Part shown: in pieces, positions 533 through 12,600 of the stretch
Layout of the letters: the number at the start of each line of letters is the position of its first letter
Position numbering within the stretch: the first letter of the stretch is position 1
Assembly (NCBI GenBank): GCA_964016885.1
Contig: OZ024748.1
Coordinates: forward strand, 24,800,001-24,864,000
Length of the DNA stretch: 64,000 nt
Origin: Eledone cirrhosa
Taxonomy: Eukaryota
Reading direction: 5' to 3'
Notes under the pieces: model-generated
Seen by the model: the letters and a program-made list of their open reading frames with translations, nothing else
Databases searched by the model: none
Told to the model about the DNA's origin: nothing
Position numbers and translations under genes: made by a program

Positions 533-662
533 AATGGTCAAAATATAGAGACTGTCAAAGAACTCAGCTACAGTCTTGGAAAGGCTATATATTTCATGAA
601 CTGTTCCTCAAGTGTAACAACTAATATTCTACAAGATGTCTTGAAAGGAATGATATTAACAG
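533..662 (+). CDS. Dynein heavy chain exon: AAA1, degenerate Walker A ([43 protein letters not shown])
   Basis: ag|aat...acag|gttagt; aligns to canonical GTGKTETVKDLAKALG..FNCS..FFKGLAQSG. Confidence 0.88.
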
Positions 663-3600
663 GTTAGTTTGCTACTTTTGTAACATAATTTCAAATTTAA
701 CCTTTTCATACGAAACCATCTGAAACTGTCTTTGATTCTATGATACAAAACTGTTTATTTTAATATTATGTAAATATTAAAACAATGTTTTGGGCTGGAT
801 GTCCTTCCTGGAACCAGTTTTTTAGTTACATTTTGACATCCAACGAGATTAGTAAAGTATGTTTTTATCTAAATATGAACATTTTTAAAACAAACAGTTT
901 ATATCCTAGAACCAGCAGGGATCGAGAGGGTTGCTATCAAAAGGTTAGAGAATGATGATGATGATACTGGTGATGATGATGATGGCGATTATAAATATTC
1001 TATTTTAAAACTTATGATTTTTAATCTAATTTCTTTCAGAATATTTCAGAAATTAATTTGGAGACAACATTTCATTGATTTTCATTTTATTTCTCTAGGA
1101 TGTTGGTTGTGTATGATGAACATTAATGGTCTGTTGCCTTCCCAGTCGGCACAGCTTGTCAGGGAGACTGCCAAGATAATGGATGCATACAAAAGCGGAC
1201 AATTTATAGTGAAACAAGGAGATAATGAAATAAAACTAATGCCAGGGGGAACAATAATTGCTACATTGTGTTCTACTAATGAGAATAAAAGATATGACCC
1301 AACCAAACTAACGGTCTATCCAGCTTTACTTCCTCCACAGTTAATCCAACATTTTAGACCTGTTGCATGTCTACGTCCTTCTTTTCAAGCTCTACTGGAA
1401 TCATTACTGTATGTTAATGGTACGTTAACTTCTGTTAACAGTTAAACTCTAACAGGAATCATTAATTAACCCTTTGGTCATGCTATACCTACATTCTCTA
1501 TATGTATATAACAAACATGTAAGTGCTATTTTTCTTGCTAAAGGAAGTATCGGCCTTGTGGGTGCCATCACAGGTGACAAGTGTCATACTCATATATGGG
1601 GTTCCTTTTGAGACAATATTTTACATCGAGATGCCATTCCTGGAACCAACTGTTTTATTTACCATTTACAACTCAAGGATACAATGGACCCAATCTAAAT
1701 TACATACATAAAGTATAATTACTCTCTTTATACATATCAATACAGTGTACCCATTCTAAACCAGATGTACCCATTATATGTATATCAAATGAGTATAACT
1801 CCCAATCTATATAAGAAGGAGGGTGAGAGTGTAGAGGTGTGTTTAATAGCTAGTATAAGATGTTTTAGAGGTGATGAATTGGCAGAGTCATTAAGATGTC
1901 GGATAGAATGCTTTATGGTATTCATCCCATATCATTGCGCGATCTGAGTTCAAATCCCACCGAGGTCAACTTTGCCTTTCATCCTTTCGAGGTCGATTAA
2001 AAAAATACCATAATTCCTCTATAGAAAAAATCGGCTGTGTTCAGACCTGGAGAAGGTTGGGCTTTGTCATGTTTAAAAGTGTCCTAGACACACCGTTTGA
2101 TTCTACAAGGAGTTATGGGATAAGATGTTTTAATCTTTCATTTCAGGATTTCACCATACGAGGAATCACTCAATTAAAATGGCGCAATTTTTTATAAATA
2201 TTGAGAAACTGTCAGCTGGTGAGTATACACACACACACACACACACACACACACATATATATATGCATACATACATACAATAAATTGTCTAAATTCTATT
2301 TGTATTTTTTCCAGGAATCTCATGTGATAGCCAGTTTCATGGGTGGAGCCTAAAAGGAATAAGGACAATGGTGAAAGTAGCTGCTGAATATTTAGCGGAG
2401 AGTTTTCAGAAAACATCAGGTATTCATATTTTAATATAATTTTTTATTTATAGTAAATATAAGAAAGTTATCCCACTGCATAAAATAAATTTACAGCATA
2501 TACAGTGTCTATTTTATCATGATACCACTACAAGTGGGTGCTCTTTGTCATGGCACCATTTCCAATGCTAACCACTTCATGATGTGTAGTGTGTTTATTT
2601 TATCATAACACCACTACAACTGGGCGCTCTTTGTCATGGCACAATTTCTACAGATCATTGCTCTTCCTAATACCAACCACTTCACAACATGTACTGTGTT
2701 CATTTTATTGTGGAATCACTGGTACCACCCGGGAGGGTGAACTAGTGACCTTTTGTCATGGCACCATATCATACCCATATTTTCCCTAACAACATAAGAT
2801 GGCAGGTGTTTTGCAATTTTGAACGCTTACATATTTTTACAACTGAACATCATTCCTAACTTTAACCACTCAACAGATGTAATGAGGGAACTTCTTATCA
2901 AAGAATTCTGAAGCAGAATAATGAGATTTACAACATTATTTCTATTAGAAGAGAGGATGGAATTTTCCTGAGTTAATGGAACCACTGAATATAATAAGAA
3001 CCACATAAAATACACTAAATATATAGAATAACAAAATTGTGAAGAATTTAGATAAAATGTATTTTGACAGAATAGTCATCATCAGTTGGAGTGTGCTTAG
3101 CTTCTAACAGAAAATTATTATTATCATTATAATCATCATCATCATCATTGCTCTTATTTTACAACTCATTTCCCTCCTTTCTTTATTGTCAGTTTTAGAT
3201 TTGACAGACGAATCACTACAGAAAAGCGAGGAGAAATATCTTATGCTAGCATGCATTAATTATCTCACCCCAAGACTTGAAGCACAACTAATTCCCATCA
3301 TGAAAAAACTTGCACATCATATATGGCCAAAAGTCTGTGAGCACTCATCAGAATTTGAAGTTGATGGTAATATTTATAACAGTATAGAATCTTGTCATAG
3401 ATCTATTCATCATATTTCAGGGCAGCCAAAAGATGCACTCTTGACTGGAAAGATTGTAAATGTTTTAGTTATTTTGAAATAATTATTATTACAAATTTTA
3501 GAGTTGTACTTAACTGACAAATGACTTAATCTGGGACTGTGTGTTGAAACTAAGGCATTTTATCATGACACCAACACTAGAAAGGTTGCTATACCCTTGA

Positions 3601-9600: not shown

Positions 9601-12600
9601 TTGGAGATATAAAACATCTCAAAAATATTCATTTATTCAACTTTGATGGAATGGTAAGTGTTGTTATTTATTACAGAACAGATACGTTGAAATATTTCCT
9701 ATACTTATCTCTTCAGTCATATTTAAGATGTAACAGCTTCTCTCAGGCTGGTGCTATGATACTCTCTAAAATGGTTGGTGTTAGGAAGGGCATACAGCCA
9801 TAGAATCATGCTAAACAGAGGGAGTGAGAAGATTTTTCATTTATGTCAAGTATAAAATAACCTCTCTATAATTATATTTCTATGAGGCAATGTTTTATGG
9901 CCTGGCTGCACTTCCTGATGATAAAATCCTTTTAGTCACCTTTTACTTCACTTAGATCTACAGTGTACCTATTCTAAAAACTTCTTACACATTCTGCCCA
10001 GAAATGAATGGATAAAATATTTGCTGTTTTTAATTTTCAGGCTAATGAAGCTCAACTGCATATATTGCAGACATTTCTTGATGGAAACGGTGCAGTGTTG
10101 CTGCCAAACCGTGAGAAAATATTCCTTAGGAAGGAATTTATTTTCTTTTGGGAGGTAAATAGCTTTTGTATTCTATTTTGGCATTTAAAACAAAAATGAA
10201 TCACAAAAGATATGTCAGCTAATAGATTTGTATTGTGTGTATGTGTGTGTATCTGTGTGTGAGTGTGCGTATATGTGTGTTTCTGAGTGTGTATATACGT
10301 GTGTGCAAGTGTATGTGTGTATACATATGATTATATGTATATGTGTGTGTGGGGTGTGTATGTGTATATATATATTTATATATATATATGTGTGTGAGAA
10401 TGCACATATGATTATATATATATATATATCTGGAGCAATATGAAACATAATGTCTTGCTGTAAGCCATAACATGTCACCAGGAATTGAACTCACAACCTT
10501 AACAATAGTGAGCTGAACACCCCAACCAGTTAACCACTCACATTCACTGGCAGGTTGTTATCAAAAGGTTTAACATATAATTTTGAAAATAAATATAATT
10601 TTGTCACGTTTTGTTTTGTCGTTGTAGGTTGAAAGTCTACAAAGATTAAGTCCTGCATTATTGACACAAGTTGGAATTCTTCAAATGACTGATGATGTGA
10701 GCTGGACAGTTTATTGGCAACACTGGTTACAGAATCAGCTTGAAAACTCTCAGCAATTTTGGACACAACTAGCAGACATATATCTTCCTAAGTTAATTGA
10801 AGCGACCAATACCTCCACCAATTCTAATGAGATTGGTAATTCTACAAGAAGAGCCTTTTCTAACCACCACTGTTTCATTCAACAAGTTTTACCAAACAAG
10901 ATTCACACACTCTGTACACTTTTGAAAGTAAGTTATCTTTGAAATAATATTTCAGAATTACTAAAATCATTCTATGAAATTTAGTGCAGGATATTGAAAG
11001 ACCAATTATTATTATCGGTAGAAGGTTGGACGCCATGCTTTCCAGCATAGTTACGTCCCTTTACGGTCTGAGTTCAAATCCCGTCAAGGTTAACTTTGCC
11101 TTTCATCCTTACGGGGTCGATAAAATAAAGTACCAGTAATGCACTGGGATAATTGCTGGCCTTCTGCCAAAAGTAGAAACAATTATTATAATATACTAGT
11201 TGGCCCCATGCCATCAACAATGACGGCTAAAGGGTAGATGTGTATTTGTATATAACTTTCAACTGCGGTCGTTTTATATTCTTGATAATTCTAATTTATT
11301 TCGATATTGCTAGGAACTTGGCTCCTTGAACAACACACACACACAAACACTCACACACATAGACTCACACACATAGACTCACACTCTCCCACACATACAC
11401 TCACACACACATTCACACAAAAAAACACTCAGACACACATACACTCACACACAAAAATACTCACACAGACATACAAACACTCACACACACAAACACAGAC
11501 ACACACAAAAACACTCACACACACAAACAAAGACACACACACACAAACAATCTCATACACATACACACACGCAAAAAAACATTTAGACACACATACACTC
11601 AGACACGCATATGCTCACATACAAAAACACACACATACGCATAAACTCACACACAATAACACTCAGACACACAAAAACACTCACACACATACACTGACAC
11701 ACACATACACTCACACACACAAACACTTACACACACACATACACTCACAAAGTGTAGCCATTCTAAGAACGCTAGTTAAAAATAATTATTACATACACAC
11801 TACTACTTTGACACTAAACTCCGCCAGTAGATGGCGCATCAACATGAAATATTTTTCTCCACAAAGTTCGATCACCAACAGCAGAGTTTAAAGAAAAAGA
11901 TCAACTCATGGTGTGAGTAGGTTATGCCTGGAAGGAAGGTTGGCTGTTAAGAGAAGCAGAGGCAGGCAGACAAAACGATGGCTTAATAATGTCAACCTAT
12001 GGACTGGACATAATCTTTGCTCTTTAATCTCTGCTGTCGGAGTCCGAACTTTGTGGAGAAAAATATCTCATGTTGAATCGCAGTCTGCAACTGGCGGAGT
12101 TTAGTGTCAAAGTAGTAGTAAGTAGTAGATGAGTTACCTCCCTTTGCCTCCCTTTGGCAGTATCAGTAGAGGGTCAGACGCCATGCTTTGGAGCATAGAG
12201 TTATGGCCCTTTATGATCTGAGTTCAAATCTCGCCGAGGTTAATTTTCATTCTTACGGGTCGATAAAATAAAGTACCAGTAATGCACTGGAGTAATTGCT
12301 GGCCTTCTGCCAAAAGTAGAAACAATTATATATTAGTAGATAATTGTTTCTACTTTTGGCACAAGGCGAGCAATTTGAAGGGAAGGGGAAAGTCGATTAA
12401 ATCGATCCCCAGTGCTTTACTGGTACTTTAGCTAACCTTGGCGAGATTTGTACTCAGAACATAAAGGGCTGTAACTATATGCCACAAAGTATCTTGAATT
12501 CTACCAATACTGCCAATCCACCATCAATAATAATCAATAAAGGATATAATAATCATAAATAAAAATATGATTCCTGTCATAGTTCATGACCATGAATTTG

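Follow-up and report, generated by a model that had tools for sequence, protein, structure and literature searches.

The question raised by contig OZ024748.1 of the Eledone cirrhosa assembly GCA_964016885.1 (C8 of genome G000 below) is what kind of dynein heavy chain persists once its main ATPase site, AAA1, has lost its catalytic residues. The gene in question (the window gene) lies across the window, the whole 64-kb stretch analysed here (G000:C8:24,800,001-24,864,000, in a genome of 3.0 Gb), and spans from ~83 kb upstream to ~117 kb downstream of the window start; plain coordinates count from the first letter of the window. Our answer, to which we assign a probability of roughly 65%, is that the gene encodes a full-length chain with a dead AAA1 site, likely a class-13 dynein, that is predicted to serve as passive beta-type partner to a gamma-type chain (most likely DNAHX) within an outer-arm-like dimer devoid of motor activity. 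Splicing was predicted from genomic DNA, and motif positions were counted by hand in the sequence.

All five AAA1 motifs of the window gene aligned without gaps on the canonical motifs of its paralogues, and five out of five catalytic residues were changed. A sequence-only reading of this DNA had proposed substitutions in Walker A, Walker B, sensor I, sensor II and the arginine finger within an intact spliced frame; every substitution was present in the alignment, and the ten exons concerned (533-10927, + strand) were AG/GT-ended, in phase and stop-free. The missing first half of the P-loop, which that reading had placed in an upstream exon, was found at C8:24,799,262-24,799,405, upstream of the window. 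There GDQ is joined to the NGQNI that opens the exon at 533-662 (NGQNIETVK, 533-559; Pfam AAA_6, E 1.9e-5), where paralogues of the same genome read GPAGTGKTETTK, with Lys replaced by Asn (542-544) and Thr by Ile (545-547). The exon at 1099-1419 carries Walker B without its Asp-Glu pair (1116-1121; Asp to Met at 1116-1118, Glu to Asn at 1119-1121), sensor I as TLCSTN (1263-1280), and then a family-specific insert of ~12 residues. Sensor II reads SLKG in the exon at 2315-2419 (Arg to Lys at 2353-2355), and the AAA2 arginine finger that serves the AAA1 site reads TQVG (10664-10675; Arg to Gln) in the exon at 10628-10927. The remaining exons code for the AAA1 small subdomain (2147-2218), the end of the AAA1 lid and the link to AAA2 (3193-3366 and 3832-4019), an intact AAA2 P-loop (GSAGCGKS at 6100-6123, in 6088-6245), and two further parts of AAA2 (9527-9653 and 10041-10154) with the same introns in the relative L138. 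The motile-dynein signature (Walker A GKT, Walker B DE, sensor I, sensor II Arg and the arginine finger) is replaced throughout. As a control, GKT and FDEFN were kept in ten of ten canonical paralogue models from the same genome, and a family profile set the identical motif register on dyneins of the PDB.

Contigs from one public sample, possibly the assembly's own source, were read as DNA; they contained no splice joints and behaved as genomic sequence. No RNA data set was listed as carrying the AAA1 exon, which does not bear on whether the gene is expressed. They covered the Walker A, sensor II and arginine-finger exons with zero differences from the assembly and showed a single difference, outside the motifs, in the Walker B/sensor I exon. 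The dynein power stroke depends on ATP hydrolysis at AAA1. With the Walker B Glu, the arginine finger and the sensors gone, this site can no longer hydrolyse ATP, and no power stroke can follow. Judged by its residues, AAA1 of the window gene is almost certainly non-hydrolytic. Standard searches can miss such a gene, as indicated by its absence from the Pfam AAA1 listing of its own genome. The AAA1 exon by itself gave no sequence match in the PDB, whereas the family profile did match, and an ESM Atlas search returned AAA_6 clusters only. An AlphaFold model of a single exon was weak (pLDDT 57.8), with dyneins as best fold matches and none at E 0.001, and was not used as evidence.

If the site is dead, is the gene nevertheless maintained? 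A search with the Walker B exon against 1.84 billion proteins gave four matches, three of them dynein-like; one of the four (P0002), a repetitive unrelated protein, was dropped. A profile search extended the relatives to 48 proteins, none informatively named, which fall into two groups by exon length with many close kin and do not count as 48 independent cases; one of the groups was found in four metagenome loci. Two word-based protein searches (<=2000 residues) for longer relatives found nothing. Neither Asp nor Glu occurs at Walker B in any of the 39 relatives covering it (48 examined, 9 gapped), the two columns being Asn in 33/39 and 36/39, and every relative that spans the region after sensor I carries the insert seen in the window gene. 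Read from these residues, members of the family likely hold on to ATP unhydrolysed, and an Asn-Asn Walker B is the rule.

The relative L138, modelled as 26 exons and 1837 open codons, has 19 of 30 introns in common with the window gene, including one inside Walker A, compared with 0-2 for eight paralogues. The best match that the L138 AAA1 exon found in the whole genome was the window exon. In the motor tree the two genes formed a clade (100/99) outside the canonical set, the long branches advising caution over its deeper placement; this tree omitted the paralogue at C9:52.08 Mb, whose crop had landed in a wrong part of the protein, and the paralogue models, which came from a gene finder, hold some false exons. 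L138 has lost Walker B, sensor II and the arginine finger, and it retains the GTGKT half of Walker A, as do L137 and L140. The dN/dS of L138 was 0.10 against L137 (1499 codons) and 0.096 against L140 (389 codons), with values of 0.13 and 0.11 on the two AAA1 exons. The losses shared with L138 and the low dN/dS together point to an ancient loss of the hydrolysis residues that has since been maintained. The sequence-only reading had taken the changes as one coordinated set and looked to relatives to share it at dN/dS<1. This held for Walker B, sensor II and the arginine finger, at a dN/dS of ~0.1, but not for Walker A, where the relatives keep GTGKT and the loss is lineage-specific; the AAA4 P-loop is additionally gone. 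On these sequences, loss of the P-loop appears as a later step in the lineage of the window gene, making a two-step loss of the AAA1 site.

A gene decaying in its own lineage, freed from selection, would also combine a long branch with the extra loss of the Walker A and AAA4 P-loops. However, the modelled ~3570 codons have stayed free of internal stops, with all splice sites canonical, over a branch 2.8 changes per site long, while the P-loops of AAA2 and AAA3 and the length of the stalk are kept; decay is very unlikely. The core model comprises 51 exons (30 of them inside the window) with 2769 open codons, zero stops and AG/GT at every end. Fourteen additional 3' exons add 800 codons and terminate in a stop; this block links to the core in phase, with one candidate exon at the link that has no clear donor. 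In the tail, 23 exons are each stop-free, and the full length is estimated at ~4900-5000 residues. A maintained non-hydrolysing dynein, as first suggested from the sequence, is thus favoured over a decaying pseudogene by the open frame, the family-wide loss of Walker B and the purifying selection in relatives. Downstream of the AAA1/AAA2 exons, and likewise on the + strand, lie two exons of the AAA2 lid (12919-13089 and 18380-18499; Pfam Dynein_AAA_lid, E 8.4e-8) and seven exons of AAA3 (19132-19295, 22026-22134, 22292-22500, 23884-23980, 27495-27637, 27731-27902 and 29286-29471) with an intact P-loop (GPNGSGKT) and Walker B (FIDD). Four AAA4 exons follow (33275-33532, 33642-33850, 36095-36261 and 37383-37533; Pfam AAA_8, E 6e-7 and 4e-7), in which the P-loop is replaced and no AAA4S insert of the DNAHX type is present.

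To which class does this chain belong? The window gene carries DHC_N1 exons (E 2e-5 and 6.6e-5), and one tail exon matched no PDB chains other than DNAH17 (E 4.5e-7) and DNAH9 (5.8e-6), a second weakly doing the same. The tail model reached 68.9 and 31.1 bits with the two class-4 paralogues, whereas none of the six other models listed exceeded 5.6, and it aligned with class 4 from end to end, N-terminal region included. In the tail tree, with class labels verified against the PDB and the cytoplasmic chain left out because it did not align, the window gene grouped with class 4 (94/95) and a divergent gene on contig C5 grouped with class 3 (96/95). Placement of the window gene with class 3 (p-AU 0.0013) or with the C5 gene (p-AU 0.0018) was rejected. 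Outer-arm beta chains (DNAH9, DNAH11, DNAH17) are the closest canonical relatives, with 24.5% identity over 1399 columns and the same tail type, stalk lengths and domain order; in contrast to them, the window gene has all AAA1 motifs and the AAA4 P-loop replaced and shares 1 of 30 introns.

By hand count, CC1 of the stalk measures 101 residues in both the window gene and class 4, CC2 measures 111 versus 110, and the AAA4S pre-sensor II segment measures 23 versus 24, with no insert, compared with ~78 in the C5 gene. The seven exons of this normal-length stalk, covering CC1, the microtubule-binding domain and CC2, lie at 38213-38369, 40063-40167, 58526-58700, 59546-59612, 60122-60292, 61366-61480 and 62047-62172 (+ strand; Pfam MT, E 1.4e-4). 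The intron within CC1 is filled, at 42038-58237, by a 38-bp unit repeated 426 times in tandem (16.2 kb, 97% matches, 56% GC). AAA5 differs: 345 residues separate the end of the microtubule-binding domain from the first AAA5 motif, versus 177 in class 4 (again counted by hand), and the domain opens with an insert of ~170 residues containing in part an acidic run. An exon 12 kb beyond the window end (L023:2047-2338) holds ~28 acidic residues and is part of this insert.

These features can be compared with the animal classes of Kollmar 2016 (PMC5100056), which distinguishes class 11 (DNHD1), class 12 (class-3 tail, abnormal stalk) and class 13 (class-4 tail, longer AAA5, low-complexity C-terminal extension), lists all three for Strongylocentrotus and Capitella, suggests a class-12/class-13 heterodimer, and states that dynein ATP sites were not analysed in detail. 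As an animal chain that is highly divergent, full length, class-4-like in its tail and longer in AAA5, the window gene resembles the class-13 heavy chain and quite probably is one, matched on described features (tail and AAA5) and not on sequences. The function offered there is altered bending; in the family described here, AAA1 is dead throughout. The published C-terminal extension (PMC5100056) was not found: the read-through last exon ends ~10 residues past the C-sequence. That exon also holds a good donor site, which would allow further exons, with no clear candidate in the lists of open reading frames (ORFs). An extension looked for but not found, and a comparison with DHC13 by description, would also suit a family with a dead AAA1 and a class-4 tail that is distinct from Kollmar's class 13 and forms a further unnamed class. 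We regard this as improbable, for the class-4 tail and the long AAA5 both fit class 13, and the three divergent chains of this genome match classes 11, 12 and 13 of sea urchin and Capitella.

These three divergent heavy chains are the window gene and two genes that appeared as weak loci beside 17 canonical ones (our own count) in the Pfam AAA1 search of the genome. The C5 gene (G000 C5:33,220,001-33,350,000, - strand; loci L077-L086 and L133-L135) has an AAA1 site reading GKK without DE, a class-3 tail that matches the gamma chain and DNAH5, a ~55-residue AAA4S insert and stalk inserts; on its sequence it fits DNAHX, or class 12. The second, the C26 gene (G000 C26:7,372,000-7,530,000, + strand; loci L067-L076 and L190-L196), has a barely recognisable AAA1, no DHC_N1 match, a single-headed-type tail unlike that of any two-headed chain, and no intron in common with the window gene. 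By elimination the C26 gene is the better DNHD1 candidate. Among the canonical loci, class 3 is represented by three copies. Two near-identical class-4 (outer-arm beta) genes lie on opposite strands ~90 kb apart at C19:6.68-6.83 Mb, reflecting either a recent duplication or an assembly artefact, and a third copy lies at C19:13.6 Mb.

With these genes in hand, the suggestion that the window gene is a DNHD1 orthologue or a separate class can be narrowed. DNHD1 (CCDC35, class 11) likewise lacks the acidic catalytic residues of Walker B (PMC11785096), and it is set apart from the window gene by description and not by a reference sequence. Nevertheless, the DHC_N1 exons and two-headed class-4 tail of the window gene set it apart from DNHD1, and the C26 gene, with a tail that matches no two-headed chain, would better fill that place; orthology to DNHD1 is highly improbable. 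A separate class, the other half of the suggestion, stands, although it is probably already named as class 13. Orthology to DNAHX (class 12) was first suspected from two shared substitutions, sensor II Arg to Lys and sensor I Pro to Ser, that resemble sea urchin DNAHX (PMC11785096). It was rejected on tail, stalk and AAA4S, since the window gene has a class-4 tail, a normal stalk and no AAA4S insert, whereas the C5 gene has the class-3 tail and the inserts; the chance that it holds after all is close to nil.

DNAHX itself is described in a preprint (Chai et al. 2025, PMC11785096) as part of a phi-shaped dimer, in a primed, weakly bound state, with a second chain whose stalk is normal and which lacks the AAA4S insert. 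By its features DNAHX is probably Kollmar's class 12. Like the window gene, it is outer-arm-derived, has a degenerate AAA1 and an intact frame, and is proposed as a non-motile partner chain. It differs in its descent from the DNAH5/8 chain, in a Walker B kept in sea urchin, in a broken stalk and in the AAA4S insert, whereas the window gene goes back to the DNAH9/17 chain, has lost Walker B and keeps a normal stalk. The normal extended stalk and lack of an AAA4S insert in the second chain of dynein-X are also found in the window gene, though most dyneins fit this description and it is not identifying. The preprint proposes DNAH6 or DNAH7 as the DNAHX partner without proof, and its available text makes no mention of class 12 or 13. 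In literature searches that left most subscription journals outside, DNAHX was met only in this preprint and DHC13/class-13 dyneins only in Kollmar 2016 (PMC5100056); a literature listing on pseudoenzyme dyneins with AAA1/Walker B in sperm held nothing on the family of the window gene.

Retention of a beta-type tail would imply assembly with a gamma-type chain, and a class-13 chain would be the DNAHX partner expected from tail ancestry. Classes 12 and 13 have complementary tails and co-occur in this genome, in sea urchin and in Capitella, and we put the pairing of the window gene with class 12 at slightly under an even chance. By descent, however, a class-4 tail pairs with class-3 chains, of which this genome has three canonical copies. 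A dead chain could instead be joined to an ordinary gamma chain (DNAH5/8) in a minor arm with one working head, or serve as a lone microtubule tether by means of its kept stalk and microtubule-binding domain, with no tie to DNAHX, whose partner PMC11785096 left without identification. Given the complementary tails and shared occurrence of classes 12 and 13, we consider this arrangement possible but rather unlikely.

Several observations weigh against a maintained class-13 partner of DNAHX. The mass spectrometry text of PMC11785096 names DNAH6 and DNAH7, and no class-13 chain, as likely partners. Class-13 membership rests on a published description of features and not on reference sequences, and the low-complexity extension expected at the C-terminus was not found. 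In the tail, the exon chain is incomplete, tree support was not starred, and the alternative grouping with the DNAH2-like chain was only weakly rejected (p-AU 0.047). Within the family, the sensor I Asn column is still Asn in 12/46 relatives and the sensor II Arg is retained in 2/26 aligned rows. The branch of the window gene measures 2.83 versus 1.02 for L138 (~2.8x), and dN/dS was measured among L137, L138 and L140 and not in the lineage of the window gene itself.

The surroundings of the gene contain a tRNA-Cys(GCA) gene in the dynein-gene intron directly upstream of the window (L002:7676-7749, - strand) and intronic ORFs at 4180-5040 and 31595-32005 of the window, which we take to be a decayed reverse-transcriptase (long interspersed element, LINE) fragment and a GIY-YIG-like retroelement fragment, respectively. 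Neighbouring ORFs lie ~192-139 kb upstream (L021-L015) and ~206 kb downstream (L036 region) of the window start, and presumably belong to a SKI-family gene and a nicotinic acetylcholine receptor subunit, respectively.

As to how a class-13 partner of DNAHX might work, the relatives, in which GTGKT is intact and the catalytic Glu is an Asn, would be expected to bind ATP and remain weakly bound before the power stroke, as a phi-particle dimer requires. In the lineage of the window gene, which additionally lacks the Lys and Thr of the P-loop, AAA1 would be nucleotide-free, and the chain may act as a static tether or brake, gripping microtubules with its normal stalk. Assembly would be tail-mediated, as for an outer-arm beta chain, with a role in flagellar assembly or damping. 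A broader proposal, that a whole outer arm without motor activity, made of class 13 (a dead beta chain with Asn-Asn for the Walker B Asp-Glu) and class 12/DNAHX (a dead gamma chain), has been retained in animals ranging from early-branching lineages to cephalopods, and that the window gene is the second chain of the dynein-X seen by cryo-electron microscopy, doubly dead and not an inner-arm carrier, is speculative and would be the less likely outcome.

Two families of non-motile animal dyneins have been described, DNHD1 (PMC8754002, PMC9916431) and DNAHX, and the window gene suggests a third family, one descended from the outer-arm beta chain. Most likely it represents a class that was named in 2016 but not examined at its active site. 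New are the Asn-Asn Walker B throughout the family, the loss of the site in two steps and a candidate for the DNAHX partner that can be tested. The Walker B replacement is a conserved, natural example of the type of change that laboratories introduce to trap ATP. With a candidate named, a class-13 sequence can be set against the existing sea urchin mass spectra and the 8 A map. Flagella would hold a purely structural mimic of the outer arm, provided that the pair is real.

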